Of a stretch of 64,000 bases of DNA, positions 161-14,542 are shown piece after piece (position 1 is the stretch's first letter; every line of letters begins with the position of its first letter). The notes under the pieces were generated by a model that did not search any database, was not told the DNA's origin, and saw nothing but the letters and a program-made list of their open reading frames with translations. The stretch lies in the IMG/VR virus record IMGVR_UViG_3300012347_000246. One strand, written 5' to 3'. A program made the position numbers and the translations under genes. Source of the DNA: an uncultured virus (IMG/VR IMGVR_UViG_3300012347_000246) (Duplodnaviria; Heunggongvirae; Uroviricota; Caudoviricetes).

Positions 161-283
161 TCCTAGCAGCCTAACCCTCACGCTCTCTTACTCTTGGGTT
201 AATGCGCCTTGCCTTCTCGTGAACAACGTCGAATAGCGATCCACCTTGTTCCGGGCCAGTGCCTTGCGGGCACACTACTATAA

Positions 284-371
284 ACTATTTTGAAACACAC
301 TACAGAACGACCACAATGTCCAAAAAGACCTGGAAGTCAAAACACTGTGCAGTAATGTGCTTTTAAATAAC
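284..371 (-). repeat. Conserved-stem RNA cassette 2 (52-nt payload)
   Basis: Arms actattttgaaacacact (284-301) and aatgtgcttttaaataac (354-371), imperfect. Confidence 0.75.
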
Positions 372-455
372 CTATATGTAAACACACTGACTCTCCAGTA
401 TTGCTACCTTCGCCGAGTTTGACGTCTTAGGTCGTGCAATGTGTTTGCATATAAG
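371..455 (-). repeat. Conserved-stem RNA cassette 3 (49-nt payload)
   Basis: Arms cctatatgtaaacacact (371-388) and aatgtgtttgcatataag (438-455). Confidence 0.85.
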
Positions 456-1347
456 TGGAGGACTGAGAATACATCTCTCCCAACAACACCTCGAGCATTA
501 TTACAAACCTTGCGAGTCTGCTTTCTCTCGACTTCCACTACAACCATATTGCTATGTATCATAGTCTGCTGTCAGCATCGCCGTTTTTAAAGCCAGGCAG
601 TAGGCTTGTCGTCACATGCTATTCTATGCTTTCTATCCCGTTGACCTTGCGAGCCATTAAGTCTTGCGAACTACGAAACTTCCTGCATAAACAGATTTCA
701 CCTTGCGAGTTACGTCTGACTAGATTCACTTGCGTGTCTAGTATTAGATGCTTTTCACATATGACCGAGTCAGTCTTTGCGTTTTAATGATAGTGAGAAT
801 CGAACCCACCGCATTCTGTTTAAGAGACAGATGTTCTACCAATGAACTATATCAACCTACTGCGATGTGCTGACTCAGTTGCTGCGTAAAGTTTTGGCTC
901 TACACAATACAACACACCACGTACCTTTCCTCTTGCGGAGTAATCAGTCGTCTTTCGCGACCAGCGTCTGCATTACTACAGCCACCACCCACTAAAACTG
1001 CATACGAGCTCTTAGGTGCAACCCTTCGAACCAATACACTACCCTTTCTCATACCAATTAACAAAGTTGGTTTCGCATAGAAGTCAGCACCACCTGTTAC
1101 TTTCCATCTACTCAAGTTCCCCTTGATGCAATCTCAGGCTTGTAAGCAAACGTTCTTCCCTATGCACTTTGCGTCACTGTTACATCCACCCGTCGCTGAG
1201 TGAACGCTCCCTCACAGGAGTGAGCAGGCTTGTCTAAATGAACCATTGCTGGCGGAGTTATGTAGGCATACCTCCTTTGGCTGTGTCACCACAGTTATTC
1301 TTCGTCTAGCTGGGCTAACCATACTATCCAGGACATTAAACTGCCCC
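456..1347 (-). ncRNA. GOLLD-like large structured RNA with embedded tRNA
   Basis: About 890 nt with no credible ORF; at least six C-GCAA-G tetraloop hairpins on the minus strand; 3' end TGTATTCTCAG resembles the GOLLD 3' terminus as recalled; tRNA-array context. Confidence 0.7.
785..856 (-). tRNA. tRNA-Lys(CTT) embedded in the GOLLD-like RNA, weak acceptor stem, no CCA
   Basis: TCTGT-CTCTTAA-ACAGA anticodon arm; GTGGG-TTCGATT-CTCAC T arm. Confidence 0.75.
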
Positions 1348-1350
1348 AAA

Positions 1351-1502
1351 TTCTTATACATCTGCACACACGCAGGAATCGAAACCTGCTGCACTTATTT
1401 TAAGAAAGTGCATGTAGCCTTATAGCAAACAGTTTCGAACCTGCTTACTACCACATCAATTCTGTTTTCGACGCAGAACCTCTATGTGCATGTGTATAAG
1501 AA
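1351..1502 (-). ncRNA. Stem-bounded RNA candidate with two T-loop-like motifs
   Basis: Ends ttcttataca / tgtataagaa pair; internal GCAGGTTCGAAAC and GCAGG-TTTCGATT-CCTGC. Confidence 0.45.
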
Positions 1503-1519
1503 CTTCTTATACGTATCTA

Positions 1520-1593
1520 TTTTAAAGAACTTTGTTAGTTAGCACAATGTCTAACTAAGCTTCTATTGTAGCAAACTTTTCATTTGCTGTCAA
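1520..1593 (-). promoter_or_regulatory. Sigma70 promoter followed by boxB-like hairpin and boxA-like element
   Basis: TTGACA-17-TACAAT (1593-1565); hairpin TTAGTTAG/CTAACTAA; GTTCTTTAAAA. Confidence 0.8.
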
Positions 1594-1610
1594 CAGTTAT
1601 TTAGAAATTT

Positions 1611-1888
1611 ATTTTGATGCCTCTTTTTACCTGCTTACAAGGTTACGGGTAAGACTTGCGTCTTTCAGTTGACCCTCATGCAACCAGTAGAGCGTTACTC
1701 TACTTTATTGCAATCCTGGTTCCTGCGTATTGCTACGTGGAACAGATCGTTTCTAACTCATAGGTGTTAGACGCCACAGTAGCCGCTTACAGACTACACA
1801 AGAGTTCCCAGCTTTCTATCTGGACCGGATTTTCGGCAAGAGTTACGCAACCTATTAGCGTAGTACGCCTGCTTACTTTGCATCAAAA
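1611..1888 (-). ncRNA. Structured ~280-nt ncRNA candidate
   Basis: Terminal pairing TTTTGATGC/GCATCAAAA; several GNRA hairpins; own promoter upstream; no ORF. Confidence 0.55.
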
Positions 1889-1893
1889 CAAAT

Positions 1894-1958
1894 TTTTAAA
1901 GAACGTTTGTTAATTGCTTAACATGAGTGTATTGTAACACATTTTTCTTTATTGTCAA
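1894..1958 (-). promoter_or_regulatory. Sigma70 promoter followed by boxB-like hairpin and boxA-like element
   Basis: TTGACA-16-TACAAT with TGn (1958-1931); TGTTAA-GCAA-TTAACA; GTTCTTTAAAAA. Confidence 0.8.
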
Positions 1959-1977
1959 CTACTGTTGAAAACAAACT

Positions 1978-2062
1978 TGGTGCGGATGGTCGGACTCGAA
2001 CCGACACGCCTTTCGGCGCTAGAACCTAAATCTAGTGCGGCTACCAATTACGCCACATCCGC
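1978..2062 (-). tRNA. tRNA-Leu(TAG)
   Basis: Full cloverleaf, long variable arm, CCA. Confidence 0.95.
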
Positions 2063-2070
2063 TTAGATAA

Positions 2071-3237
2071 TTACTTATCGTTTAAGCTAGTATTATATGC
2101 GAAGTTGATTTTACTGTCAACATGTTTTTGCATGATTTTAGTGAAATCTTCAAACTTCTCTGCTTTTGGAGCACAGTAGCCGCATATACATCTAACTTGC
2201 TTGCATTGTATAACAGGAACAGTATTCCCGTCAAGCAGTTTTTGTTGATCGTCTAGAATTTTTTTGGTATCACTTAGGTTCCCGATTGGGCCTATGCCAC
2301 CGTCGAAGTTCATTTGACAATCTTTGTTTACATAAACATCACCATTGTGTTGTCTAATGTATAAGAAGTACCAGTTTACACTGCAATACCAATCTTTAAA
2401 ATCCGCATGTGGTACAAAGCCCATTGGATGTTTTAAGTCTTGGTTAGTACATAATCCTCTGCCGCCACAACAGCTACGACCAATCTTGCCCATACCAACT
2501 GTATCATCTGTTACTTCTTTTAACATGATGATCTTGTTGCGACTCTTTTCGGGCGTCTTGCTTTCGTAATAGTCTGCAAAGAACTTGAACTGATCTTTAT
2601 TGTATTGCCACTTAGGTGTAGGTGTGTCGTTGGCTTTAACTACATGCTTGATATCATGCTGTTTGCAAAACTCCACAGCTTGCATGCTTATATCCCACAT
2701 TTGAGGATCGTTATGCATCACAAACACTACTTTTTGCTTCCTGTTGATGGCCTTATTGTAGAGGATGTTGTCTAGCACTTGCTGGCGCTGCTTAGGCAGT
2801 GCTTCGCTGTGAAAACTAACTGTAAACTCATCTACGTGTTTGGTAACCTCGGTCCACAAGTTCTTTCCTGCTACGCCGTTAGTGGTTACTGTAACTGTTA
2901 ATGTCCAGTCATCCTTGAATGCTTCATGGCGCTTTCTAAGCTCTTGCAGAATCTCTACAATGTTAGGATGATAGATAGCTTCGCCGCCGTAAAGATTTAG
3001 AACCACGATGCGTTGCCACTTAGGCTTGAGCATCATGTAACGATGAACATAATCGAACATAAAGTCGATTGTGTTTAAGCATTCATCTAGCGGAGGGTGT
3101 GAGCTATGGTTGTCATGCCACTGCGGTCCACAATAGCTGCAATCAAGATTACAGCGTAGAGTTAACTCCCAATCCAATAGCAGAATTGGCCTATTAGACG
3201 GATCAATTGCTGGCTCAACGCTTACAATCTTATCCAT
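2071..3237 (-). CDS. Radical SAM protein with C-terminal Cys cluster
   Basis: CNLDCSYC motif, YGGE, TTNG, C-terminal CxxxxCxCxxC. Confidence 0.9.
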   Translation of the reverse strand: MDKIVSVEPAIDPSNRPILLLDWELTLRCNLDCSYCGPQWHDNHSSHPPLDECLNTIDFMFDYVHRYMMLKPKWQRIVVLNLYGGEAIYHPNIVEILQELRKRHEAFKDDWTLTVTVTTNGVAGKNLWTEVTKHVDEFTVSFHSEALPKQRQQVLDNILYNKAINRKQKVVFVMHNDPQMWDISMQAVEFCKQHDIKHVVKANDTPTPKWQYNKDQFKFFADYYESKTPEKSRNKIIMLKEVTDDTVGMGKIGRSCCGGRGLCTNQDLKHPMGFVPHADFKDWYCSVNWYFLYIRQHNGDVYVNKDCQMNFDGGIGPIGNLSDTKKILDDQQKLLDGNTVPVIQCKQVRCICGYCAPKAEKFEDFTKIMQKHVDSKINFAYNTSLNDK

Positions 3238-3808
3238 ATACCATTACCAGTTGTTGTTCAAACCATTCTTTGCATTCTGCAAAGGGTTTAGCAAATCGCA
3301 AGTTAAACCAAACTCGAGATCCTGTATTGTTGATGCCATGCATCTTTTGAATGTCCAGTAACCAACCTTCTCCAGCGTTACTCGGATACACTTCTATGTA
3401 GTCTTGGTCCTTTACATAGGTAAGACTGTCTGTGGTGTTAATGAAATAGTTAAACCCAGTATTCTGGCCGGGTTGGTCTTTGTGCTCTGCACCATTGCCC
3501 ACTAGTTTGTTCACGGACACTATGGTAGGCTCTAGCTCACTTAAACTTGCTAACATTAGCGGAAGAAAGGGCATTGACTTTTCGATCAATGGGCCTGTCA
3601 TATTATACCAGTAACTGCTACCGTTAGTAACGTGGCTAATTGTGCCAGCAGATCCTAGTTCATAGTGGTATCCATACTCACTATACTTGTATTGCTTTGT
3701 GATTTTATCACTGTTTGAGGTAACTAGACCAATGCCATGCTCTAATACTGCAATGGTATTTTTCCAATTATGATCAATTCTGATCGGGGTTTTGTATGTT
3801 AGTAACAT
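3230..3808 (-). CDS. Hypothetical protein, possible 2OG-Fe(II)/cupin fold
   Basis: HKD...HGINN...RVW pattern resembles the HxD...H facial triad. Confidence 0.55.
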   Translation of the reverse strand: MLLTYKTPIRIDHNWKNTIAVLEHGIGLVTSNSDKITKQYKYSEYGYHYELGSAGTISHVTNGSSYWYNMTGPLIEKSMPFLPLMLASLSELEPTIVSVNKLVGNGAEHKDQPGQNTGFNYFINTTDSLTYVKDQDYIEVYPSNAGEGWLLDIQKMHGINNTGSRVWFNLRFAKPFAECKEWFEQQLVMVYG

Positions 3809-3811
3809 GTA

Positions 3812-4092
3812 TCTATAAAGAGGTGGAGCATATAAAACTTATTTTTCAACCGTGGACTGATGCACGGCCGGTAGCTATCCGGCTCGCTTCGTAAGCTCAA
3901 ACGGGTAATTGCCATGCCCTAACTTACACATCTTCTCAGAGTCTCAATAATTCGCGATTTTAAAATCCATTTGTTGCCTCGGAGGTTTCCGATATTTGAT
4001 CACGGGCCACTATTCTCAGGCAAGAAAGATCGCTACTAAATCTACCACAGGTAATAAGTCACTGCCTTGTGTATGCTCCACCTCTTTATAGA
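3812..4092 (-). ncRNA. ncRNA or leader candidate bounded by a perfect 21-bp inverted repeat
   Basis: tctataaagaggtggagcata (3812-3832) / tatgctccacctctttataga (4072-4092); promoter directly upstream. Confidence 0.55.
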
Positions 4093-4106
4093 CAAATTGT
4101 TGAGTT

Positions 4107-4134
4107 ATTATAACAAAATTTGAATTTAAGTCAA
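4107..4134 (-). promoter_or_regulatory. Sigma70 promoter
   Basis: TTGACT-16-TATAAT with TGn. Confidence 0.7.
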
Positions 4135-4141
4135 CTGGAAT

Positions 4142-5335
4142 TTACGTAGTTAGGTCCAGTAAGTGGAACAATGGAGTAGAATTCAACTTTAATCCAAATC
4201 CATAAGTTCCTTCTACTAGGCTCATTGGGCTTACCCCACTTGTAAATTCTTTTGATCCATGGTAGAACGCTTTCCGCAATGAATCTAGCTCAGGAAGTTC
4301 GTGCAGCCAAAAATACCAATCGCTTCGTTCTTTATTTGGCTTCACAACTTGAAATTTATTATTATCCCACGTATCTTTATACAACACTGAATTAAAAATT
4401 CGACGCTGAGCAGCATCATAGTGAGACTTGTTGTGATTATTAGTTAAAAACCAAATTGGGCTTTCTAATAAAGGTCTTGCTGCTTTGTTATGATTAAAAT
4501 ACAGTGCAATTTGATAAGCCTGCTCCACTGGCAACAGAGGCAGGTCCGCAGACCAATAAAATAGTTCAACTCTGTCCTCTCCCATTGCTTCAACCATGCT
4601 TGCATTAGTGTGAAAGCTGTCTAGGAACTTAAAGTATACCTTTCCATCAACTGCTGTAACATACGGTTTGTCAGTTCCAATTACATGACCAACTTTTCTA
4701 CTTGTTGGCGATACCAACGATAACTTAGTCTCACAGTTGGGATCAAGACGAATAACCGTACTGCCCAGACTTAAGTGACCGATATTGATTTGGGACAATC
4801 TATTTGTAAGTTGATCCACTCCCAAGGACTGGTTTCCTAAATACTCTGCATAATCAACAATGTTGATTTTTATTTCAGGATTGGATATTTTTAATCTATC
4901 AAGAGTTGGCTTAATGGAATAGTTCCATTCGCTTGCTGCATTCCTTGCAGAAGTATCCTTAGTGTTAGGAGTGTAACCATTTCCATCAATAAGATGTTTT
5001 GGCCAACGCACCATTACTTCGTCAAGTTTAATATTGTTTGTTAAAAACGTTTCCAATATGTTATGACTATCGGCCCCGCCTGAATAATGCAATACTACAT
5101 AATCGTATTTGTCTCTAATTTGTAAAGCACGTTCCTTGTACAAAGTTGTTAGTGGGATTTTTCCCAACAACGATTTGTCAAACTTTTCCCAAACTTGATT
5201 GTGAAAATAAAAAGAAACTGGGCCGGATCTGTTTGCATACGCATGTCGATATGCATCAATTTTTGCAGTGAATGGCACTGAGTTAGAAACCCAACATCCA
5301 TATTTACTACTGAGTGTTTTTGAGATATTAACCAT
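4142..5335 (-). CDS. PP-loop (adenine nucleotide alpha hydrolase-like) protein, paralog 1
   Basis: LYKERALQIRDKYDYVVLHYSGGADS; ELFYW motif shared with paralogs. Confidence 0.8.
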   Translation of the reverse strand: MVNISKTLSSKYGCWVSNSVPFTAKIDAYRHAYANRSGPVSFYFHNQVWEKFDKSLLGKIPLTTLYKERALQIRDKYDYVVLHYSGGADSHNILETFLTNNIKLDEVMVRWPKHLIDGNGYTPNTKDTSARNAASEWNYSIKPTLDRLKISNPEIKINIVDYAEYLGNQSLGVDQLTNRLSQINIGHLSLGSTVIRLDPNCETKLSLVSPTSRKVGHVIGTDKPYVTAVDGKVYFKFLDSFHTNASMVEAMGEDRVELFYWSADLPLLPVEQAYQIALYFNHNKAARPLLESPIWFLTNNHNKSHYDAAQRRIFNSVLYKDTWDNNKFQVVKPNKERSDWYFWLHELPELDSLRKAFYHGSKEFTSGVSPMSLVEGTYGFGLKLNSTPLFHLLDLTT

Positions 5336-5362
5336 TAGTTGTTGACGTTAACACTATTTATA

Positions 5363-5436
5363 TGGTGCTCCTACAAAGAATCGAACTTTGGATTACGCTA
5401 TACCACAGCGTCGGTATGCCATTTACCTATAAGAGC
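5363..5436 (-). tRNA. tRNA-Thr(GGT), atypical loop bases
   Basis: ACGCT-GTGGTAT-AGCGT, T arm, CCA. Confidence 0.8.
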
Positions 5437-5437
5437 T

Positions 5438-5514
5438 TGGTGCCCCGGGCGAGACTCGAACTCGCAAAATTTGGATTTTGAATCCAACACGTATACCAAT
5501 TCCGTCACCGGGGC
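5438..5514 (-). tRNA. tRNA-Leu(CAA) with short variable loop
   Basis: TTGGA-TTCAAAA-TCCAA, Leu-type D arm, CCA. Confidence 0.9.
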
Positions 5515-5518
5515 AGGA

Positions 5519-6727
5519 TTAGTTGGTGCGTACTGCAAATACTTCTTGAAAGGACTCTCCCCTAATCACATCATATTTTTTTGTATAATCAAAAAATGCT
5601 ATTGGATCATGCGGGGTTGATTCAATTAGCCCCTTCTTTACATTTAACAACTCTGTACGCAATACTAGATAATTTGGCGCAGTTAAAATCTCTACCGATT
5701 TATCAATTTCAGTGATTGCTTTACTTCGTAGCTGCTTTGGTAAATTGTTAAAATGCATGCCAGGCGGCGAAGTCACATTGTAACATTTTATACCAATTGA
5801 TGCATTTTCATTGTATAGTTTCATTAGAAAAGAGGCAAGTGCAGAAAAGTCCATTAAACTATATGCAGATATAGCAGTGGTCACTTCTAAATTAAATGGA
5901 GCAGGCAACTGATTTAATTTAAGAACATTACTTTCGACTTTAGGCCAATCAGTGCCGCTGCGAATATATTCCGCAGATTTTCCTACTGCGTCAATGCTCA
6001 TTACTAACTCTACTTTTTTAAACTCACTAAGTCGAGTAATAAAAAGTGGATTATACACACTACAATTGGTATATAACTCTAACTCCATATTCCTACTAAA
6101 CCCATTGCTAATTAAGTAGTCTAGATAGTCGTAATATTCTTTTATCAAAAATGGTTCGCCACCGGTTAAACATACCTTTCGAACTGACGCCAACAACGAC
6201 TTGTCCTTGAGACTTTCAATTACCGCAGGGTCTGCTTTAGTTATTGGAATTATACTGTGCTCGAGATGACTTCCGGCTTTATCCGGCTTGATCTTATGTT
6301 CAATTTTTTCTGCTGCAAAGCTGGAACTAGATGTTTCATCGCACATCCTGCATTTCATATTACATAGATTGCTAAATCTAAGTTCAATTCTTGTTGGTAC
6401 TGTTGGACTGTCAGCAGTAAACTTGTTTGCAAACCACTGGTCTTCATACTCAGGTTCGGGTCCTACATTGTAGTAATTCCAAATTGCTCCGCGTGTGCTT
6501 TTTAGTCCATGACGCTCACGCTCTTTGCAACCAGAACATGCAGCAGGAACGATCCCTTGCTGCATTTCTTGTTTTATATTCTTGAGCCATTCGCTATTAA
6601 AATAATCAGACGGGGTTGCTTCCATCTCTAAATTTTTAATCATGTGACACGGACTGGGCGAGTTAGCATGGTAATACAACAATGACCACGGGGCAGGACA
6701 GAAGAACTTCTCCGAAAACTTTGCCAT
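5519..6727 (-). CDS. Radical SAM protein with N-terminal twitch/SPASM-like Cys domain
   Basis: CPAPW...CSGC, CNMKCRMC, TGGEP; start moved to the ATG at 6727 (AGGAG RBS) because the longer ORF overlaps a tRNA. Confidence 0.9.
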   Translation of the reverse strand: MAKFSEKFFCPAPWSLLYYHANSPSPCHMIKNLEMEATPSDYFNSEWLKNIKQEMQQGIVPAACSGCKERERHGLKSTRGAIWNYYNVGPEPEYEDQWFANKFTADSPTVPTRIELRFSNLCNMKCRMCDETSSSSFAAEKIEHKIKPDKAGSHLEHSIIPITKADPAVIESLKDKSLLASVRKVCLTGGEPFLIKEYYDYLDYLISNGFSRNMELELYTNCSVYNPLFITRLSEFKKVELVMSIDAVGKSAEYIRSGTDWPKVESNVLKLNQLPAPFNLEVTTAISAYSLMDFSALASFLMKLYNENASIGIKCYNVTSPPGMHFNNLPKQLRSKAITEIDKSVEILTAPNYLVLRTELLNVKKGLIESTPHDPIAFFDYTKKYDVIRGESFQEVFAVRTN

Positions 6728-6742
6728 ACTACTCCTATAATT

Positions 6743-6818
6743 TGGTGCCTCTAACCGGGGTCGAACCAGTGACACACGGATTTTCAATCCGCTGCTCTAC
6801 CAACTGAGCTATAGAGGC
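6743..6818 (-). tRNA. tRNA-Phe(GAA)
   Basis: Canonical cloverleaf, CCA. Confidence 0.95.
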
Positions 6819-6917
6819 AAATTTTAAATGGTTGTGGGTTTTTACCACTCCTGAACCTTGTTCCACCGCTCGGTCAAAGACTTATGTGGCGATCCCGTGC
6901 AGCTCGCATTACACTAT

Positions 6918-7038
6918 ACCATATAGAAGCACTCTCAAATGCAGGCCTAGGAGGAGTCAAGCTCTGAAACCGTTGCGTATGCATCCACTAAGGTCTCTTC
7001 TCCCGCTTTGTCTTATGCTAAGAATACTTCTATATGGC
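6918..7038 (-). repeat. Conserved-stem RNA cassette 4 (85-nt payload)
   Basis: Arms accatatagaagcactct (6918-6935) and agaatacttctatatggc (7021-7038); compensatory changes. Confidence 0.85.
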
Positions 7039-7137
7039 GGTGCATAAGTTAACCTAAAACTAGTCTAATATCGCGGCCGCAATATTTCGTCTATGTCTTA
7101 GGATATACACGTTGGTACCTTGCGTACCTTACGCACC
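7035..7137 (-). ncRNA. CCA-ended stem-bounded small RNA candidate
   Basis: GGTGCGTAAG ... CTTATGCACC-GCCA. Confidence 0.5.
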
Positions 7138-7237
7138 ATATAAAAACACACTACGTGGAATCGAACCACTGACCCTTTCACTCCGTAGAGACCGCATTAA
7201 TTACGCTTAGTCGCCGACTAGTATGTTTTTATATGGT
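7135..7237 (-). repeat. Conserved-stem RNA cassette 5 (67-nt payload with T-arm)
   Basis: Arms 7135-7152 and 7220-7237; payload contains GTGG-TTCGATT-CCAC. Confidence 0.9.
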
Positions 7238-7345
7238 GACAGTTTAGTCCGATAACTGTCAAAGAGTTGTTGTAGTTTGCTCTAGAAACAACATACATTT
7301 GGTCGTCATGACCGGGCACTCCACGTTTGAGCCTTCTGGTTAGAT

Positions 7346-7421
7346 ACCATATAGAAGCACACTAACCATCATTGGTACTGTTTGCAACCAGTACGGATTT
7401 GAAAATGTGTTTCTATATAGG
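7346..7421 (-). repeat. Conserved-stem RNA cassette 6 (40-nt payload)
   Basis: Arms 7346-7363 and 7404-7421. Confidence 0.85.
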
Positions 7422-7505
7422 CTCCACCGTTAACGACAGCATTCGTCCTGGCTTTATTTTATGTCGGTTAATGCACGGTGGACACACATGCCGACGGGGT
7501 TACAG

Positions 7506-7644
7506 TTTCAATGATGGGATTCGAACCCACTAACTACCCGTGCGATGCGGGTTGTGCTACGCTCGCCATACATTCAGTTTACTCCGTTACGTACCGGACC
7601 AATTGTATGACTTTGCACTATCTTTCCATGTCGTCTTCATTGTT
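7506..7644 (-). ncRNA. tRNA-like element with expanded D region
   Basis: CAATG/CATTG acceptor-like pairing; ACCCG-CATCGCA-CGGGT arm; GTGGG-TTCGAAT-CCCAT; no CCA. Confidence 0.45.
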
Positions 7645-7730
7645 ACCATATAAAAACATACTGCTGGCTATGCCCTTGGCGTCCCAGAAGCTATCAGAGT
7701 CTAACTGAATGCAATATGTTTTTATATGGT
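7645..7730 (-). repeat. Conserved-stem RNA cassette 7 (50-nt payload)
   Basis: Arms 7645-7662 and 7713-7730. Confidence 0.9.
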
Positions 7731-7827
7731 CGGTGCAGGTGAAATCGCATCACCGAGCCAAGTTATGTCTTTTGTACATTATGCACAGAACTCGCTGAGG
7801 CTTCCTCAGTACCTAGGATATGCACCA
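7727..7827 (-). ncRNA. tRNA-shell RNA with CCA
   Basis: TGGTGCA / TGCACCG-A-CCA acceptor; GGTGA-TGCGATT-TCACC T-like arm; non-tRNA interior. Confidence 0.55.
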
Positions 7828-7905
7828 TATGTAAACACACTATTAGTTTCGCCATCATCCGACTTTAAAATCAGCTGCGGTTTAAATAATGTGTTTGCAT
7901 ATGGT
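7824..7905 (-). repeat. Conserved-stem RNA cassette 8 (46-nt payload)
   Basis: Arms accatatgtaaacacact (7824-7841) and aatgtgtttgcatatggt (7888-7905). Confidence 0.9.
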
Positions 7906-7977
7906 GGGACTGTTCGGGCTCGAACCGAAAACCTACCGGTTAAAAGCCGGTTGCTCTAACCATTGAGCTACAATCCC
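7902..7977 (-). tRNA. tRNA-Lys(TTT)
   Basis: Canonical cloverleaf, CCA. Confidence 0.95.
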
Positions 7978-7980
7978 GTA

Positions 7981-8054
7981 TGGTCCTCCGCCTAGGTATC
8001 GATCCTAGTTTTACTGGTTAAGAGCCAGTTACATCACCTTAATGTTTGCGAAGG
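7981..8054 (-). tRNA. tRNA-Lys(CTT), atypical D and T arms
   Basis: ACTGG-CTCTTAA-CCAGT; T loop ATCGATA; CCA. Confidence 0.75.
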
Positions 8055-8139
8055 TTGGTGTATTAAATTTTAGTTTAACGTGCCAACCTTAGACCAATAC
8101 GGGATCTAAAGTTGACACTAACGTTTACCACGTTTCATG

Positions 8140-8271
8140 TCATTCACCTTTGTCAAATTTTCTACCACTCTTCTTACTCTTCACACCTATTGTGAATAGT
8201 ATCTTCTTACCAAACCCTGCACGATATACTCGACAGTCATGGTATGTACGCTTAGAACCAAATGCTCGCAT
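8140..8271 (-). CDS. Small basic protein, 43 aa
   Basis: AGGAG RBS; MRAFGSKRTYHDCRVYRAGFGKK...; below the ORF-track cutoff. Confidence 0.5.
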   Translation of the reverse strand: MRAFGSKRTYHDCRVYRAGFGKKILFTIGVKSKKSGRKFDKGE

Positions 8272-8280
8272 TGCCTGCTC

Positions 8281-8763
8281 CTACATGTTTCTAAATTGAA
8301 TTGTACGCCAGGCTTCAGGATCGGGTTGTTCATTCTCATCGTATGTCCAACCTAGTGCCTTCATCATCTTGTGCTTAACACGCAAGTTAGGTATACGTGT
8401 ACGTTCAGTATCACTGAACCCCATCATGATTCCAACTTCTGCTACTGCACCACTGCGACATAAGCCAGCCATACAGTGTACTACAACATTCATTTTATTG
8501 TCAAGTGCATGTTGAAGTAGTTTCACTATTTCATTTGCTTGTTCGTCTGTAATTTTAGCTTCGTCCGGAAACCCATCTTTATCTTCGGCATCTAAAAACT
8601 CGAAACGATGTGCTTCCTTAAAAGTGTGTGCAGGTGTTGGCCACCAACTCGGACACGGATCCATAATTTGAATCAACATAGAATTGTCCCCAGCATCATG
8701 ATGCAATTTCATCGGTACATCGGCTGCTGCTACGTTTTCAATCCAAGGCATTTTATTCTCCAT
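8281..8763 (-). CDS. Cys-based (PTP/dual-specificity) phosphatase
   Basis: VVVHCMAGLCRS CX5R motif. Confidence 0.85.
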   Translation of the reverse strand: MENKMPWIENVAAADVPMKLHHDAGDNSMLIQIMDPCPSWWPTPAHTFKEAHRFEFLDAEDKDGFPDEAKITDEQANEIVKLLQHALDNKMNVVVHCMAGLCRSGAVAEVGIMMGFSDTERTRIPNLRVKHKMMKALGWTYDENEQPDPEAWRTIQFRNM

Positions 8764-8803
8764 TCTGCATTATAACATCGATTCTATTATAACGCAAGAG
8801 TAT

Positions 8804-8880
8804 TGGTCGGTCCTGAGGGACTCGAACCCCCAACCTACGATTTCGAAGACCGGAACTCTATCCAGTTGAGCTAAGGACCG
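8804..8880 (-). tRNA. tRNA-Arg(TCG)
   Basis: Cloverleaf, loop CTTCGAA, CCA. Confidence 0.9.
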
Positions 8881-8993
8881 AGGTGAAGGTTTTAATGGTG
8901 CCGGGATTACCTTCAACCCCGTGTACACAGCCCATCCCACGTTTCGTGTACAGCGGACGCTGATATCTTCTCTTGCGAGTTAGTGGGTCAGCG
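8881..8993 (-). ncRNA. Three-hairpin small RNA candidate
   Basis: CGCTGA/TCAGCG, TGTACAC/GTGTACA and TGAAGGT/ACCTTCA stems. Confidence 0.45.
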
Positions 8994-8995
8994 AA

Positions 8996-9601
8996 TTACA
9001 TTGTAGGCGCAGAACCATTGCCGTAAACTTCTTCACGACGTTTCATACCCACAGTGCCACCCTCTGCTTCAATACGTTTGATAACGTCTTCAAACAAGAT
9101 AGGCGCAAAGTTAGTGTGCTCTACACATACACAATGGTATCGTGGATCGATAATTTCACCACCGTAGCCATTTGATTTCATTACACGACGATCATGTAAG
9201 TGACCGTGAATGTTAACACCAAAGCGACCTAACGACGATTCATGTAAAGGGATATGACTCAAGATCATTCCGTTCAATACATGATACCCACGCACATCAC
9301 GAAAGTGTTCGGTATATTCCTCTAAGCGAAAAATATCGTGGTTGCCTTTGATTAACACCTTGTCGCCATTTAGGCGGCGCATGATGCCTAATGCTTTACG
9401 GTTAATAACAACGTCACCTAAGTGATATACTTTGTCATTTGGGCGCACTGTGTCATTCCAACGGCGCACCATTTCTTCGTCCATTTCGTCAGGATTGTCC
9501 CACGGACGCAATTTTACGTTAGGGTCATCTTTACTCATAAACTTGCAGACACCCATGTGCCCGAAATGAGTATCACTGACTAAAAAACTTGCCGGCATCA
9601 C
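8996..9601 (-). CDS. Calcineurin-like metallophosphoesterase
   Basis: SDTHFGH, HLGD, GNHD, HGHLH motifs. Confidence 0.9.
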   Translation of the reverse strand: MMPASFLVSDTHFGHMGVCKFMSKDDPNVKLRPWDNPDEMDEEMVRRWNDTVRPNDKVYHLGDVVINRKALGIMRRLNGDKVLIKGNHDIFRLEEYTEHFRDVRGYHVLNGMILSHIPLHESSLGRFGVNIHGHLHDRRVMKSNGYGGEIIDPRYHCVCVEHTNFAPILFEDVIKRIEAEGGTVGMKRREEVYGNGSAPTM

Positions 9602-9678
9602 AGCCTCCTTATTACTCTATAAAGTACATACATTATAACACCAATTACAATTAAAGCCATTGCATGTACTCCTAATTT

Positions 9679-9755
9679 TGGTGCCCTGGGAGAGACTCGA
9701 ACTCTCAGCTTACGGCTTCTTAGACCGCTGCGTTTACCAATTTCGCCACCGGGGC
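9679..9755 (-). tRNA. tRNA-Leu(AAG) with short variable loop
   Basis: GCGGT-CTAAGAA-GCCGT; Leu-type D arm; CCA. Confidence 0.85.
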
Positions 9756-9770
9756 CTGATAAATAAACTT

Positions 9771-10325
9771 ATGAACTACGATAAATTCCGCCAACTCTTA
9801 AGTCTGTTTGAAGCCCGCAATCCTGATCTCGAATACCAGGAAACTGAGAAGCAAGTTATTGCTATCCTTAGAGGATCTAACAGCCAAGTATTCACCAAGC
9901 TAGCACAAAAAGTTGAACGCATTAGTCAACTTGAAGCAGAACTAAAAATCCTCAAAGAAGAAGTTAAGCAAAGCACTAGAGACGATGTAGCTGCATTGTT
10001 TAATGCAGAAGATGGCGCTAAAACTCGTATTATTCAAACTCTAAGTTTTATCTTGCAACTAAGCAAAGATCCAGAAGAAACTAAATCTCCAAAGTACAAG
10101 GACATCCTTGCTGTACTCGAAACCAAGTTAACTCCAGAGCTAATCAAAGTTCTTGAAGAGCTTAAAAAGACTATGGTTACTGTTACACAAAAAGAAGCAG
10201 GTCTTAAAATCAAGCCACTCGACGAAGGACAAGACGCAATGCTGTTCAATCGTTTAAACGAGTTAGTTCAAGACTGGGGCCAACGTTATGACCAAAAGCT
10301 AAACGCATTAATGCAACAGGTATAA
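9771..10325 (+). CDS. Hypothetical coiled-coil protein
   Basis: ATG just after an ATAAATA late motif; the longer ORF overlaps a tRNA. Confidence 0.75.
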   Translation: MNYDKFRQLLSLFEARNPDLEYQETEKQVIAILRGSNSQVFTKLAQKVERISQLEAELKILKEEVKQSTRDDVAALFNAEDGAKTRIIQTLSFILQLSKDPEETKSPKYKDILAVLETKLTPELIKVLEELKKTMVTVTQKEAGLKIKPLDEGQDAMLFNRLNELVQDWGQRYDQKLNALMQQV

Positions 10326-10327
10326 TC

Positions 10328-10747
10328 ATGAAGATCAAACCATTAAAAGAATATATCCGCGAAGCAGAAGTTGCGGACCGCCCACCAGAACTAGCAAAGC
10401 CTCCTGTGGGGCAGCAACAAGAAAAGCCAGCCGATAAACCAGGTGGTTTTACTGTTATGATTCTTAACGATGGTATGACGCCAGCTGAAGTAGTTATTGA
10501 AGCTATTGTTAGCGTAACTGGAATGAGCTCAGACGCTGCATTCACTAAAATGATGCGAGCACACCAAGGCGGATGGGCGCCAATTAAATCATATGCCAGC
10601 AAAGACGTTGCCGAGACTATTGCACATGGCATTATGCGTCATGCACAACAAAATGATCGCTACGATCATTATCGTCAACACCCACACTTCCGTAACTTTA
10701 AAGGCCCCTGGCCTCTTACTGCCGAAGTAATGGATGCTGCTCAGTAA
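10328..10747 (+). CDS. clpS: ClpS-like Clp protease adaptor
   Basis: VMILNDGMTPAEVV...MMRAHQGG...KDVAET matches the ClpS core. Confidence 0.8.
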   Translation: MKIKPLKEYIREAEVADRPPELAKPPVGQQQEKPADKPGGFTVMILNDGMTPAEVVIEAIVSVTGMSSDAAFTKMMRAHQGGWAPIKSYASKDVAETIAHGIMRHAQQNDRYDHYRQHPHFRNFKGPWPLTAEVMDAAQ

Positions 10748-10749
10748 TT

Positions 10750-10823
10750 TGGGGTGAAGCCGGGAATCGAACCCTGGTCCCTTGTTTCACAGACAAGTAT
10801 TCTACCACTGAACTAGCGACACC
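10750..10823 (-). tRNA. tRNA-His(GTG)
   Basis: G-1, loop CTGTGAA, C73, CCA. Confidence 0.9.
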
Positions 10824-10935
10824 ATAACGGCACTAAGGGCTTTCCTCTCAAGCGTGTGCCACACATATAACAGTAAACTATTTCTCATCTGTTATACATC
10901 CCAGTTGACTGCTGGTTCAGTGAAAATAGTTTTGA

Positions 10936-11047
10936 GTTAATGCGATGGGATTCGAACCCAACCATCCCGCCCGGTTTCGCTAGTTACTTGCCCTGCAAGG
11001 CTTTCCCTAGGTACTCGGGGCCGGTATGCCAGCCAGTACATCTCACA
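10936..11047 (-). ncRNA. tRNA-like element with expanded anticodon region
   Basis: TGTGA/TCGCA acceptor-like pairing; GGG-TTCGAAT-CCC; no CCA. Confidence 0.45.
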
Positions 11048-11084
11048 ACCTGTCGTTCAGTCTTGCAGGACCTCCCGAGCAGTC

Positions 11085-11513
11085 TCAAAAGTCTTCTGTG
11101 ATTTGACGTAGATCTTCTATGTTTTCTACGCTGCCGTCTTCGTTATATTTCACTGATCCGCCGTAGTATCCATTGTGGCTATTACGCACTTCAATGTCAA
11201 TGTACCCACGATCAGTTTTGATAGTCCAGAACGCATCCTGGACCACTTCGTGTCCTTCTTCTTCGTGATCCTCACCCCAACCTTTGTCTTCAACACCGGT
11301 TACTAGTGCCCCACGTAATAGATCAAAGCTGTTGCCTTCACCCAAGATAGTAACGCCGTTAATGTGGTTGAACCACACGCTGTTGCAGCAATCATTTTCG
11401 GTATCATAGCGATGAAACTTACCATCGATGGTTCTAACCACCAACGCCCAGCTATCATTACCCAGGAAAATACCGTTAATACGTTGTCCAACTAAATTTT
11501 TAAAAACGCTCAT
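11085..11513 (-). CDS. Hypothetical phage protein
   Basis: Clean ORF; DCC and HNGYYGG motifs seen in phage proteins. Confidence 0.75.
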   Translation of the reverse strand: MSVFKNLVGQRINGIFLGNDSWALVVRTIDGKFHRYDTENDCCNSVWFNHINGVTILGEGNSFDLLRGALVTGVEDKGWGEDHEEEGHEVVQDAFWTIKTDRGYIDIEVRNSHNGYYGGSVKYNEDGSVENIEDLRQITEDF

Positions 11514-11728
11514 TGCTGCTCCTTGCAGTTATTATACTGCTTTATTCTTTTTGAGTTGTTGTACAACTCCAGATTGTAGTCAAGTAATTCCCCTGGAATC
11601 GATTCACTTGTACACACGTTACAGACGTTCTTTTTAAAGCCTTTAACATATGGTCCGGTTTCGGGCCGAAAGGTGTATGTAACTACTTTAGTATCTTCAG
11701 ACCCACAGTATGCACATGAATGTTTCAT
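11510..11728 (-). CDS. YgiT/MqsA-type zinc-finger protein without HTH domain
   Basis: CAYC...YTFR...VKG...CNVC; AGGA RBS. Confidence 0.65.
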   Translation of the reverse strand: MKHSCAYCGSEDTKVVTYTFRPETGPYVKGFKKNVCNVCTSESIPGELLDYNLELYNNSKRIKQYNNCKEQQ

Positions 11729-11739
11729 AAAGTCCTTAA

Positions 11740-11816
11740 TGGTATCTCTGGCAGGAGTCGAACCTGCTACCCCTAAGTTCGTAGCCTAGTGCTCTATCCA
11801 GATGAGCTACAGAGAT
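11740..11816 (-). tRNA. tRNA-Arg(ACG)
   Basis: Cloverleaf, loop CTACGAA, CCA. Confidence 0.9.
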
Positions 11817-11828
11817 AAATATTTTACT

Positions 11829-12371
11829 ATGACACAACTATTCACCGAAACCGCAAGACACCATTCAAACAGCATAAGTCGTGCTAATCCAAATTGGCGC
11901 AACGACTCAGTTTACGCTTTCTATAAAAGCAACGGAGAAGTGCTAACTTTAGCTGAGTTAGTAAATAGTTTAAACCCGCAATCTGTCCTTGATTTTGGGT
12001 GCGGCAACGGGTTAGCATTACCTTCAATTGCAGGAGTTAATGCAAAAGGGTACGATCCATTTGTAGACGAATTTTCTACTTGGGAACCTGCTGTGTATGA
12101 TTTAATAGTGTCGCATTTTGCAATTTTGCACGTCGAAGATCAATTCTTCAGCGACACAATTAAAATGTTACGTAATGCATGTGGTAAAAATTTTGTTGCC
12201 ACGTTTGCTCTTACTAAACATATACCACATCGCGATACTGAATGGTATATTAATCATCTTAAATCCCACTTTACCATTGACGACCAGTACACTAGTGCGC
12301 CAATAGAATGGACTGATTCCAACAATGTTACTACTACAAAGCAAATAGTAACCATATGGTGTTCAGTTTAA
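11829..12371 (+). CDS. Class I SAM-dependent methyltransferase
   Basis: VLDFGCGNG, GYDP, YDLIV; start after ATAAATA. Confidence 0.8.
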   Translation: MTQLFTETARHHSNSISRANPNWRNDSVYAFYKSNGEVLTLAELVNSLNPQSVLDFGCGNGLALPSIAGVNAKGYDPFVDEFSTWEPAVYDLIVSHFAILHVEDQFFSDTIKMLRNACGKNFVATFALTKHIPHRDTEWYINHLKSHFTIDDQYTSAPIEWTDSNNVTTTKQIVTIWCSV

Positions 12372-12376
12372 GTTAT

Positions 12377-12453
12377 TGGTCCGTGTGACACGATTCGAAC
12401 ATGCGACCACCTGGTCCCAAACCAGGAGCTCTACCAGGCTGAGCTACACACGG
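12377..12453 (-). tRNA. tRNA-Pro(TGG)
   Basis: Cloverleaf, CCA. Confidence 0.95.
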
Positions 12454-12460
12454 ATAATTT

Positions 12461-12536
12461 TGGTGGAGGTAAGGAGGATCGAACTCCTGACCTTTAGCTT
12501 GCAAAGCTACTGCTCTCCCAGCTGAGCTATACCCCC
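12461..12536 (-). tRNA. tRNA-Ala(TGC)
   Basis: Cloverleaf, G3:U70, CCA. Confidence 0.95.
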
Positions 12537-12543
12537 ACTATGC

Positions 12544-12617
12544 TGGTGCCCCATAACAGAATCGAACTGCTATCCCCGGATTACAAAACCGGTGTTCTAC
12601 CATTTAACTAATGGGGC
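12544..12617 (-). tRNA. tRNA-Thr(TGT)
   Basis: Cloverleaf, CCA. Confidence 0.9.
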
Positions 12618-12704
12618 GAAATGCTTCCAACTGTGACCTTACGCTCTCTCCGTTGGCGATTGAGCAGCCGACATTCTTAAAGTCTTCTCGGAACTGACTT
12701 AAAT

Positions 12705-12780
12705 TGGCTCCCCAGCGTGGGATCGAACCACGGACACCTTGATTAACAGTCAAGTGCAACTACCGCTGTGCTACTGGGGA
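12705..12780 (-). tRNA. tRNA-Asn(GTT)
   Basis: Cloverleaf, GCCA. Confidence 0.95.
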
Positions 12781-12788
12781 ATGATACA

Positions 12789-12817
12789 ATTATATATGAC
12801 AAACATTACCTTGTCAA
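12789..12817 (-). promoter_or_regulatory. Consensus sigma70 promoter
   Basis: TTGACA-17-TATAAT. Confidence 0.85.
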
Positions 12818-12824
12818 TAAATTT

Positions 12825-12899
12825 TGGTAGCCATGGACAATTTCGAAATGTCGACCTAACGCTTATCAAGCGTTTGCTCTTCCTCTGAGCTACACGGCT
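12825..12899 (-). tRNA. tRNA-Ile(GAT)
   Basis: Cloverleaf, loop TTGATAA, CCA. Confidence 0.9.
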
Positions 12900-12914
12900 A
12901 AAAATAAATACAGT

Positions 12915-13118
12915 ATGAGTAAACCCAATCCAGGATTTGAAGAATTACAACAGCTCGGTTACGGAACATACCGCAACACTGTGAGCTATTCGTGCATCAA
13001 AGATTTCACTCTTACATATGCTAAAAAGACTAACGAGCTTTTTGTCCCCGACGGTCTTCCTAAACAAATTGGCAGGGGTAATCGGATTCGAACCGATGAT
13101 ACTAATTTCAAAGACTAG
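12915..13118 (+). CDS. Small hypothetical protein; 3' end antisense to tRNA-Gln
   Basis: ATAAATA-CAGT-ATG start like other plus-strand late genes. Confidence 0.45.
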   Translation: MSKPNPGFEELQQLGYGTYRNTVSYSCIKDFTLTYAKKTNELFVPDGLPKQIGRGNRIRTDDTNFKD

Positions 13119-13147
13119 TGCTTTAGGCCAGACTAAGCTATACCCCA
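13070..13147 (-). tRNA. tRNA-Gln(TTG)
   Basis: Cloverleaf, GCCA. Confidence 0.9.
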
Positions 13148-13160
13148 ACAAAATTAACCT

Positions 13161-13235
13161 TGGTACTGAGTACGGGAATCGAACCCGTCTTTGCGACTTG
13201 AAAGGCCACCGTCCTTACCGATAGACGAACCCAGT
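13161..13235 (-). tRNA. tRNA-Glu(TTC)
   Basis: Cloverleaf, CCA. Confidence 0.9.
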
Positions 13236-13243
13236 ACAAAAAT

Positions 13244-13319
13244 TGGCGCCTCGTAGGGGTTTCGATCCCCTTGCCTCTACAGTGACAGTGTAGTGCTCTC
13301 CCGATTGAGCTAACGAAGC
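13244..13319 (-). tRNA. tRNA-Asp(GTC)
   Basis: Cloverleaf, loop CTGTCAC, T loop ATCGAAA, GCCA. Confidence 0.9.
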
Positions 13320-13586
13320 ATATAAAAGCAATAGCGTTACTGCAAACAGAATGAACTGAGTGGCTCGCACTATCGCGGATGTTTGTGTTAAGTTGTTTGC
13401 CGCACAACCATAACAAAGCGGGGGTCTGTGTTTGTCAACAATTTATCTCATTATACGCCGCTGACAAGGGCGAGGCTCAGTAGCAGCATTAAACAATACT
13501 GCAAAATTTGTGGAAGTTCCGATAGCACCCATCGTCACTTACAACCGTTGAGTAACCATGCATCAAAACAAGATTACTATTTGCTC

Positions 13587-13672
13587 TGGTGGAGGCGACT
13601 GGAGTTGAACCAGTAGTGTCATAAGACGGCGGATTTACAGTCCACTGGGGTTACCAATTTTCCTACACCTCC
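13587..13672 (-). tRNA. tRNA-Tyr(GTA)
   Basis: Cloverleaf with long variable arm, CCA. Confidence 0.95.
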
Positions 13673-13681
13673 AAAAACTTT

Positions 13682-13783
13682 ACCATATGTAAACACACTA
13701 GCGTTTTACGATAAACTACGCTCCCGAGTTTCTGCTCAGGACCCCATAGGTTTGCCTATGTTTCTAATGTGTTTGCATATGGT
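13682..13783 (-). repeat. Conserved-stem RNA cassette 9 (66-nt three-hairpin payload)
   Basis: Arms identical to cassette 8 (13682-13699, 13766-13783). Confidence 0.9.
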
Positions 13784-13877
13784 GTAGTAACTGAGAGTTG
13801 AACTCAGAACGAATACTGTCATTTTACAATGGGTAATATTACCTCCCACCGCTGTATGCCCCTCGGATAATTACTTC
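13780..13877 (-). ncRNA. tRNA-shell RNA with aberrant anticodon arm
   Basis: GAAGTAA/TTACTAC-A-CCA; CTGAG-TTCAACT-CTCAG; extended central stem with no 7-nt loop. Confidence 0.6.
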
Positions 13878-13922
13878 CTACTCACATACAGGCACAGTCG
13901 TTACGCCTGTTTACCACAAACT

Positions 13923-13998
13923 TGGTACTGCGTATGGGAATCGAACCCATCTTACTAACGTGAAAGGCTAGTGTCCTAAACCGATAGACGAACGCAGC
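13923..13998 (-). tRNA. tRNA-Glu(TTC), second copy
   Basis: Cloverleaf, CCA. Confidence 0.9.
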
Positions 13999-14044
13999 AT
14001 TATTTCTAACATGTGTGTATTGTAACACACTTCTTCTTTTATTT

Positions 14045-14121
14045 TGGCGACCCCGAAAGGATTTGAACCTCTGACATTTGGTTTTGGAGACCAACGTTCT
14101 GCCGGACTGAACTACGGAGCC
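14045..14121 (-). tRNA. tRNA-Trp(CCA)
   Basis: Cloverleaf, loop CTCCAAA, GCCA. Confidence 0.95.
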
Positions 14122-14129
14122 ACTAAACA

Positions 14130-14205
<76 letters not shown>

Positions 14206-14215
14206 ATCTGATTCT

Positions 14216-14306
14216 TGGCGGAGACCGTGGGAATCGAACCCACTCACCTGCTCATCACAAGTGTACACCTTAGCAGGGTGCTGCATTACCGGCCTGCCCG
14301 GTCTCC
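14216..14306 (-). tRNA. tRNA-Ser(GCT)
   Basis: Long variable arm, GCCA. Confidence 0.9.
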
Positions 14307-14361
14307 AATGTTCTATTGTTACATACATTTAGATATGTGTCAACAGATATTTTTAAAAATT

Positions 14362-14453
14362 TGGCGGAAAGCAGAGGAGTCGAACCCCATCCCCGTTAAG
14401 AGAACCTGGTTTTCAAGGCCAGTCGCAGGACCATCCCCGCTGCATTACTTTCC
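14362..14453 (-). tRNA. tRNA-Ser(TGA)
   Basis: Long variable arm, enlarged D arm, GCCA. Confidence 0.85.
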
Positions 14454-14458
14454 ATATT

Positions 14459-14534: not shown

Positions 14535-14542
14535 ATATTGTT

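Follow-up and report, generated by a model that had tools for sequence, protein, structure and literature searches.

One of the closest described counterparts of the element reported here is the intervening sequence of two-piece transfer-messenger RNA (tmRNA) genes (RF04321, RF01850). Like our element, it has an encoded CCA on one side and, on the other, the 5′ G of a transfer RNA (tRNA)-like acceptor helix. According to the part of the tmRNA database paper considered here, which makes no mention of a conserved spacer hairpin (PMC11915505), it is removed by tRNA-processing enzymes, as our element would be. In this study, we describe a hairpin of constant stem in a stretch of 64,000 nucleotides (nt) from an uncultured virus (IMG/VR record IMGVR_UViG_3300012347_000246), referred to as the window, and above all in an array of such hairpins at 6819-7905. 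As far as sequence can tell, one hairpin of conserved sequence marks the joints of tRNAs, tRNA-like RNAs, GOLLD and the two tmRNA halves in more than 100 uncultured phage contigs, a recurrence that points to a shared processing signal. Unlike the tmRNA spacer, the window hairpins are used ten times and join two different RNAs, either a tRNA and a unit or two units. We consider it probable, if not securely so, that the array belongs to a single transcript of the tRNA operon, in which a standard hairpin serves as punctuation and tRNA-type processing makes the cuts.

The maturation and punctuation of long tRNA operons in large phages have hardly been studied. In phage T4, rnaC and rnaD (species 1 and 2; NC_000866) are non-tRNA RNAs of 119-139 nt that lie in the tRNA cluster, on the tRNA strand and directly after tRNA-Arg. 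Their 3′ ends are tRNA-like, with a T-arm and an acceptor-like strand in rnaC and ...GCACC followed by A in rnaD. Three window units have 3′ ends of this type: A, D and G have a terminal helix and NCCA, and A and G a T-arm-like hairpin as well. The CCA-ended units may be seen as descendants in kind of the T4 RNAs, from which they differ in showing no sequence similarity (blastn against phage records) and in being separated by constant-stem hairpins, none of which occurs between rnaC and rnaD. We know of no function for the T4 species 1 and 2 RNAs. In the portion of the literature considered here, engineered polycistronic tRNA-guide RNA arrays and natural tRNA-linked small RNAs are likewise described as small RNAs freed from one transcript by tRNA-processing enzymes; the present locus differs from the engineered arrays in being natural, phage-borne and equipped with a dedicated constant hairpin.

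A constant-stem hairpin at tRNA ends

The source of the window is an uncultured T4-like large phage, with genes including UvsX, UvsY, a gp32-like single-strand DNA-binding protein, tail sheath and tube, and the large terminase (open reading frame (ORF) annotation). Larger relatives measure 320-354 kilobases (kb), and seven public fresh-water or wetland runs, from three studies, each contain at least half of the sampled sequence words. All 30 tRNA genes (785-18648; ARAGORN) are on the minus strand, and the array is therefore read on that strand. Positions 6819-7905 belong to the phage tRNA operon and have no protein-coding capacity; no PHROG family matched the five short ORFs within the array, and no sigma-70-like promoter or terminator-like site was found on the minus strand of this segment.

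Between tRNA-Lys(UUU) and tRNA-Phe, five long hairpins (c5 to c1) alternate with five non-tRNA units (A to E) of 89-225 nt (Table 1), so that the alternation of five cassettes with spacers proposed in a first-pass annotation is confirmed on the minus strand. The 3′ CCA of tRNA-Lys(UUU), at 7904-7902, provides the first three bases of c5, and c4, c2 and c1 each come after an NCCA-ended unit. The stem comprises 18-20 base pairs (bp): an AU-rich outer helix of 8 bp, often with a mismatch, is followed by a core of 10 bp in which AAACACAUU pairs with AGUGUGUUU, including a U·G in a fixed place. The arms enclose a structured interior of variable sequence. A repeat search gave arm pairs of 17-22 nt with 88-95% complementarity for four hairpins (I2, I3, I4, I10). 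The variant member c3 has a left arm beginning CUAUAUAG, and the stem of c1 is about 20 bp long with five G·U pairs on the minus strand (pair table from an alignment of five relatives).

A covariance model (R1), whose 60 hairpins all come from other phages and which includes no sequence from the window or from its nearest record, G001, finds ten hairpins in the window. All ten lie in the first 16 kb, the tRNA region, and score higher on the minus strand, which is that of the tRNAs. The five array hairpins (25.1-53.8 bits; E-values 8e-5 to 3e-13) are far beyond chance. Five further members lie beyond the array that the first-pass annotation had picked out: three form a second array directly 3′ of GOLLD (61-454; 46.0, 33.2 and 52.5 bits), and one each stands near tRNA-Tyr and tRNA-Met. 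The family is not present in Rfam 15 and literature searches gave no description, so the hairpin appears to be undescribed. A blastn search of the array (6700-8100) in distant mode against 50,697 phage records returned matches to tRNAs only, and an Rfam scan of the same interval at E-values up to 10 returned tRNAs, microRNA-type noise and a 15-bit permuted-tmRNA match over c5, and nothing else.

Pairing of the stem was assessed in an alignment of 60 rows (A1). Here 94.8% of cells are paired, compared with 84.8% in shuffles and at most 62% in slid controls, and 13 of the 18 pairs vary on both sides, a number reached by none of 500 shuffles. The A1 rows had been chosen for pairing; the unselected evidence consists of the outward extension of core matches and of the outward pairs. 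Outward pair 2 is A-U in 28 cases, G-C in 11, U-A in 10 and C-G in 9, and of 84 core matches in 80 loci, 74 continue to pair outward for 5 bp or more. Taken over 44 unique hairpins, stem positions 14 and 16 show U·G 27 times and A·C or C·A never, and by this pattern the pairing appears to be RNA-type, mismatches of the G·U kind being found on the sense strand only. The core sequence is kept beyond what pairing needs, with the U·G, for instance, retained in 56 of the 60 rows.

The exact 13-nt arms, set around 50-80 nt, occur in 57 viral loci and the 9-nt core pair in at least 122, of which the 80 loci with 84 core matches are a part. At these 84 matches a tRNA lies on the same strand in 55 cases and on the opposite strand only in none, while 29 have no tRNA within 600 nt. 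When places were oriented by the asymmetry of the core, 217 of 318 (places from overlapping loci left unmerged) agreed with all tRNAs of their locus, 7 disagreed, 55 were ties and 39 were without a tRNA. Positions relative to tRNA ends were as follows: 45 of 58 exact-arm hairpins start at the CCA of the upstream tRNA, which is tRNA-Lys(UUU) in 26 of the 45, and 23 of 58 finish in the first two bases of the downstream tRNA. Late promoters (TATAAATA-like) were also considered as an explanation of the arms and were ruled out, as the outer arms differ in many members and the part that is conserved, the core, is not where such a promoter would lie.

In the complete 354-kb relative G003, R1 finds five sense-strand hairpins and one doubtful plus-strand match, and one of its matches falls within the permuted tmRNA gene (ARAGORN). 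Ten loci were scanned with Rfam, and in four of them (L091, L115, L118, L147) the permuted tmRNA gene holds a hairpin; alignment of L091 puts it exactly between the CCA of the acceptor piece and the 5′ G of the coding piece. The spacers of these five phage two-piece tmRNA genes are thus of the same hairpin family, and the hairpin would be the spacer that is cut out of them. A separate observation in G003 (L253), at 174282-174465 (minus strand), is a tRNA with anticodon CUA (ARAGORN 'Pyl'), an amber suppressor, with a family hairpin directly after it; this is a hint that phages of this group reassign or suppress stop codons.

GOLLD RNA, whose occurrence near tRNA islands is treated in the part of PMC12286853 considered here, lies at 460-920 on the minus strand of the window (207 bits; Rfam). 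A tRNA-Lys(CUU) at 785-856 sits inside it, and a constant-stem hairpin starts at most 6 nt after it. The order of GOLLD followed by a constant-stem hairpin is seen again in a second phage (L133; Rfam scan).

Table 1. Hairpins, units and tRNAs of the array (in minus-strand order) and of the other family sites in the window; R1 scores are in bits, and MFE is minimum free energy
Feature	Position	Strand	Remarks
tRNA-Lys(CUU)	8054-7981	-	
tRNA-Lys(UUU)	7977-7902	-	ARAGORN; Rfam tRNA 72.8 bits
Hairpin c5	7904-7825	-	R1 53.8 (-) vs 43.9 (+); inverted repeat I2, 22 nt, 91% complementary
Unit A	7827-7727	-	tRNA-like RNA, ~100 nt; MFE -30.7 kcal/mol
Hairpin c4	7729-7646	-	R1 53.8 (-) vs 48.5 (+); inverted repeat I4
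Unit B	7645-7421	-	composite: tRNA-like 5′ part and module P as 3′ part
Hairpin c3	7420-7347	-	R1 42.3 (-) vs 40.3 (+); inverted repeat I23, 13 nt, 92%
Unit C	7347-7237	-	fold: 8-bp hairpin, then CCA
Hairpin c2	7236-7136	-	R1 51.9 (-) vs 40.2 (+)
Unit D	7137-7035	-	~100 nt; MFE -36.9 kcal/mol
Hairpin c1	7037-6919	-	R1 25.1 (-) vs 18.4 (+); divergent family member
Unit E	6918-6829	-	ends ...CCCACAACCA; carries GGAACAAGGT
AU spacer, 10 nt	between unit E and tRNA-Phe		
tRNA-Phe(GAA)	6818-6743	-	downstream end of array
Hairpin	372-454	-	second array, 3′ of GOLLD
Hairpin	285-370	-	second array
Unit F	161-283	-	second array; holds GGAACAAGGT
Hairpin	61-159	-	second array
Unit G	13783-13922	-	7-bp terminal helix, T-arm-like hairpin, ACCA; adjoins hairpin 13683-13782
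Hairpin	13683-13782	-	10 nt upstream of tRNA-Tyr; R1 54.1
Hairpin, divergent	15202-15278	-	upstream of tRNA-Met; R1 24.6, E 1e-4

Units, inserts and their turnover

Several of the units between the hairpins end as a tRNA does. Unit A has a 7-bp terminal helix, with a T-arm-like hairpin abutting its 3′ strand and a tail of ACCA; unit D has a 10-bp terminal helix followed by GCCA, encloses a hairpin with a C-GCAA-G tetraloop, and has a fold z-score of -4.7 against mononucleotide shuffles. The two had been annotated at first pass as stems ending in NCCA, a description that their terminal helices of 7-10 bp support. The end of unit C reads ...CACCA, its CCA standing directly after the final hairpin. 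Unit E finishes ...AACCA, in agreement with the ACCA end noted earlier for 6829-6917; in relatives it is always found beside c1 and just 5′ of tRNA-Phe, and it recurs in another phage (L071) directly after a tRNA. The sequence that 6829-6917 had been said to share with 161-283 is GGAACAAGGT. It occurs at two places of the window only, 243-252 and 6855-6864, and each copy is on the minus strand.

Unit B is composite. The tRNA-like element previously placed at 7506-7644 stands in part: a T-arm is present, while the tRNA match at 7506-7577 is weak, at 17.2 bits against a cut-off of 29 bits (Rfam RF00005), and ARAGORN calls this part only at a threshold of 85%. The 3′ part, module P (~7422-7500), has long-range pairing and is kept in four relatives, with a compensatory change in an internal hairpin in L199 (by eye); the terminus of the unit is without CCA. 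Module P was also considered as a tmRNA-like tag frame, which was ruled out since the window and L197 do not share the frame (by eye). No array unit reaches 29 bits as a tRNA, the match in unit B being the best, and ARAGORN calls none at normal thresholds; relaxed thresholds or introns give doubtful calls only, and no tmRNA in the array.

The picture in other phages is similar. Among 38 distinct inter-hairpin segments, 29 are without a recognisable tRNA and 9 have one. A T-loop-like motif close to the 3′ end is present in 12 of 32 units tested, a set from which an orientation tie removed one window unit. A unit reading ...AATGAGTTYGCA was seen in five contigs at six loci. A further unit (X) occurs in G001 (L196, ~2990-3140) and in L198 (~2065-2205): it is tRNA-Lys(CUU)-like, with a normal anticodon loop in G001, and at the place of the variable arm some 50 nt, including a GAAA-capped hairpin, are inserted. 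Comparison of G001 with L198 shows covariation in the acceptor helix of unit X (by eye).

The inserts enclosed by the arms are far more diverse than the arms. Clustering of the inserts of 156 unique hairpins, the window and G001 excluded, gave 107 clusters, and no similarity could be detected from one cluster to another. One stem over so many unrelated inserts is what one would expect if the hairpins were themselves the product, the stem being a scaffold for processing, nuclease resistance or protein binding, the insert a payload that acts as decoy or regulator on host translation or a tRNA-targeting defence, and the units further payloads. This alternative is possible, yet we regard it as doubtful. 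In its favour, c1 and its insert are kept in five relatives with 5 of 63 predicted pairs altered on both sides, compensatory changes keep the insert hairpins within clusters (by eye), and the conservation of the core goes past the need for pairing, as seen in its U·G. Some inserts are moreover tRNA-like: the interior of c2 is, with the T-loop GGTTCGATTCC, and so is that of a hairpin present additionally in G001, again with a T-loop. On the other side, no partner protein emerges, as Ro60/TROVE and a double-stranded RNA-binding domain are each found in 0 of 5 large relatives; nor was there a YrlA match at E-values up to 10 in 6700-8100, so that the comparison with Y RNA and Ro60 failed. The wholesale replacement of inserts between near-identical phages argues against an indispensable payload.

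Such replacement became apparent when synteny and unit turnover in relatives were examined, as the first-pass annotation had recommended. G001 is the nearest record to the array, with 96-97% identity across the region. Between it and the window, the interior of c2 is wholly replaced while arms and flanks are near-identical, and a module of 245 nt, consisting of a hairpin plus a unit, is present in G001 and not in the window. The breakpoints of these gains, losses and swaps lie inside the arms. In syntenic relatives, in which the neighbouring radical-SAM gene is 77-100% identical, the tract from tRNA-Lys(UUU) to tRNA-Phe varies from 540 to 1335 nt, and the slot after tRNA-Lys(UUU) holds four different inserts over five distinct relatives. 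The c2 insert is found in three different contexts, its surroundings in L197 and L199 being unlike those in the window. Against this turnover stand conserved blocks, namely c1 with unit E before tRNA-Phe, and module P, all of which are kept among relatives whose neighbouring gene has a protein identity of 77-84%. RNA libraries extend these observations in the form of assembled contigs from four libraries, in which modules and joins can be read and uncovered bins carry no meaning. They contain array modules joined in other orders: unit C is found between other flanks (contig X18, record 21), and one contig (X16, record 9) spans 7033-7129, at unit D.

The same rearrangements could suggest an element that acts as DNA, with arms serving as terminal inverted repeats of a miniature mobile element or as attC-like sites, and the array as an integron-like store of RNA-gene cassettes. 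Inverted arms do bound a segment that varies in sequence and length, modules are gained, lost or replaced by breaks inside the arms, identical inserts stand in differing contexts, and module order is shuffled in other contigs. We nevertheless judge this explanation improbable. In 5 large relatives no tyrosine recombinase (Phage_integrase) was found, nor was there one among the annotated window ORFs, and with it the comparison with integron attC sites failed; the inserts of different copies are unrelated, unlike the copies of a miniature transposon, so that the test for a miniature inverted-repeat transposable element failed as well (interiors unshared, 107 clusters from 156 hairpins). The fixed orientation to the tRNAs, the G·U-kind mismatches confined to the sense strand and the fact that the hairpin falls exactly on RNA processing sites likewise speak against it, and general homologous recombination (UvsX/UvsY) would be enough for the swaps.

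It is, finally, very improbable that units and inserts are decaying tRNA duplicates, with the arms a frozen accident and the array devoid of a function of its own, for although there are weak tRNA remnants (the 17.2-bit match at 7506-7577; T-loops in c2 and unit B) and relatives differ strongly in content, conservation and covariation of the stem extend over more than 100 phage contigs, module P, unit E and c1 persist where the neighbouring protein has diverged as stated above, and the acceptor helix of unit X covaries.

Predicted processing of the array

In the reading that we favour, of a single punctuated transcript, the whole array would be co-transcribed with its flanking tRNAs, and in each hairpin one arm, the 3′ trailer of a structured RNA, would pair with the other, the 5′ leader of the RNA that follows. 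Cleavage by RNase P would fall at the 5′ G after each hairpin. On the CCA side, judging by the 3′ maturation of bacterial tRNAs, a hairpin placed right after an encoded CCA would block exonucleolytic trimming; we therefore propose an endonuclease there, cutting at or in the AU-rich stem beside the CCA, which may be host RNase III acting on the duplex of about 20 bp, or RNase E. The products would be tRNAs, CCA-ended units and free hairpins. The hairpin would act as a folding insulator and as a cut mark, the role it would also have in the two-piece tmRNA spacer, and its arms, near-identical throughout, would double as short homology for the phage's own recombination system (UvsX/UvsY), which would account for the swaps of inserts and of hairpin-plus-unit modules between close relatives.

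The anatomy agrees with a single precursor in several respects: the tRNA strand is used throughout, no promoter- or terminator-like site is seen internally, c5 begins with CCA, units A, C, D and E end in NCCA, and the hairpin of other phages stretches from the CCA of a tRNA to the first G of its neighbour and serves as spacer in two-piece tmRNA genes. The initial suggestion, that tRNA-processing enzymes release about ten small RNAs from a single precursor, thus fits, with the cleavage itself a prediction from the sequence. Its likening of the array to a CRISPR-like economy without direct repeats was not supported. The hairpin arms are conserved repeats that recur in both direct and inverted orientation (families D1-D4), and they form inverted pairs around 40-85 nt; the variable parts are structured and non-uniform, at 45-220 nt, with units of 89-225 nt; and no Cas-like gene or Cas family was found among the annotated and scanned ORFs.

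Hairpins processed by RNase III are known from the early mRNAs of phage T7 and from the stems of rRNA operons. With such sites the constant stem shares a duplex of about two helical turns, an internal mismatch, a place flanking RNA that is to be released, an AU-rich composition and few G-C pairs near the base. Its geometry compares with that of a substrate of this enzyme, given a helix of 18 bp with a mismatch at one position in 28 of the 60 A1 rows. A specific U·G-containing box is described as a positive determinant for E. coli RNase III in the part of the report considered here (PMC1540722). The U·G step of the constant stem differs, by our reading, in orientation from the canonical UA/UG distal box, with no convincing match to a T7 or E. 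coli box, and we know of no RNase III site with so strict a conservation of sequence across phages.

Several observations weigh against the processing model. A host enzyme would not obviously require so strict a sequence, and genes for RNase III, a double-stranded RNA-binding domain and a CCA-adding enzyme are each found in 0 of 5 large relatives. The RNA-library matches are assembled contigs, possibly with DNA among them, and carry no ends, strand or proof of transcription. Within insert clusters, hairpins retained through compensatory changes (by eye) go beyond what a mere spacer needs. In the 32-unit test, a simple one, just 16 units have a CCA end and 7 a terminal helix of at least 5 bp, and the label 'tRNA-like' suits only part of the units. 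Hosts, in addition, seem not to use the constant-stem signal themselves. The core pattern was examined at 80 loci of species-representative bacterial genomes, where 6 (two from one contig) have extended pairing and adjacent tRNAs, all 6 on small, phage-like contigs of 1.5-21 kb; 5 of the 80 are one Haemophilus element, and the remainder are without outward pairing and look like chance.

A wider version of the idea, which we put forward as speculative and rather unlikely, makes the constant stem the standard socket of a phage RNA-cassette system. Expression from the tRNA operon, excision by tRNA-type processing and protection by the stem would then be open to any small structured RNA lying between the arms, payloads and modules would be exchanged by homologous recombination via the arms, and the targets of payloads and CCA-ended units would be host translation or tRNA-targeting defences. 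If true, this would amount to a pool of non-coding RNA genes that resembles an integron but has no integrase. The hairpin exposes a large and fast-turning pool of small structured RNAs, with more than 100 unrelated inserts besides the CCA-ended units. This may have practical application, as the stem can be used as a search handle for phage non-coding RNAs and may offer a natural design for freeing several RNAs from one transcript.

Neighbouring genes and minor observations

A hairpin of 81-83 nt with the same 9-bp core, other outer arms and no tRNA nearby is found in Haemophilus (L266, L287, L319, L320, L326) and in about 14 IMG/VR prophage loci (e.g. L109). The resemblance could be due to chance, or the hairpin could be distantly related to the constant-stem family.

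The tRNA region of the window also contains protein genes. Three paralogues of about 390 amino acids (48% and 33% identity; 4142-5335, 15898-17034 and 17031-18221, all on the minus strand) share an SGGxDS motif, match no Pfam or PHROG family, and stand among the tRNAs, beside radical-SAM genes at 2071-3237 and 5519-6733. We take the motif to be that typical of PP-loop ATP pyrophosphatases, and the three proteins may be tRNA or nucleotide modification enzymes. Between tRNA genes lie a dual-specificity-phosphatase-like protein and a calcineurin-like phosphoesterase (8281-8763 and 8996-9601, minus strand), which may belong to RNA end repair. A gene for a ClpS-like adaptor protein is located at 10328-10747 on the plus strand (E-value 8e-12), and one for a tryptophan-halogenase-like protein at 51669-53300 on the minus strand (PHROG 2928, E-value 3e-152). 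Lastly, tRNA-Ile(UAU) at 18192-18283 (minus strand) is 92 nt in length, which is unusually long for a tRNA-Ile.

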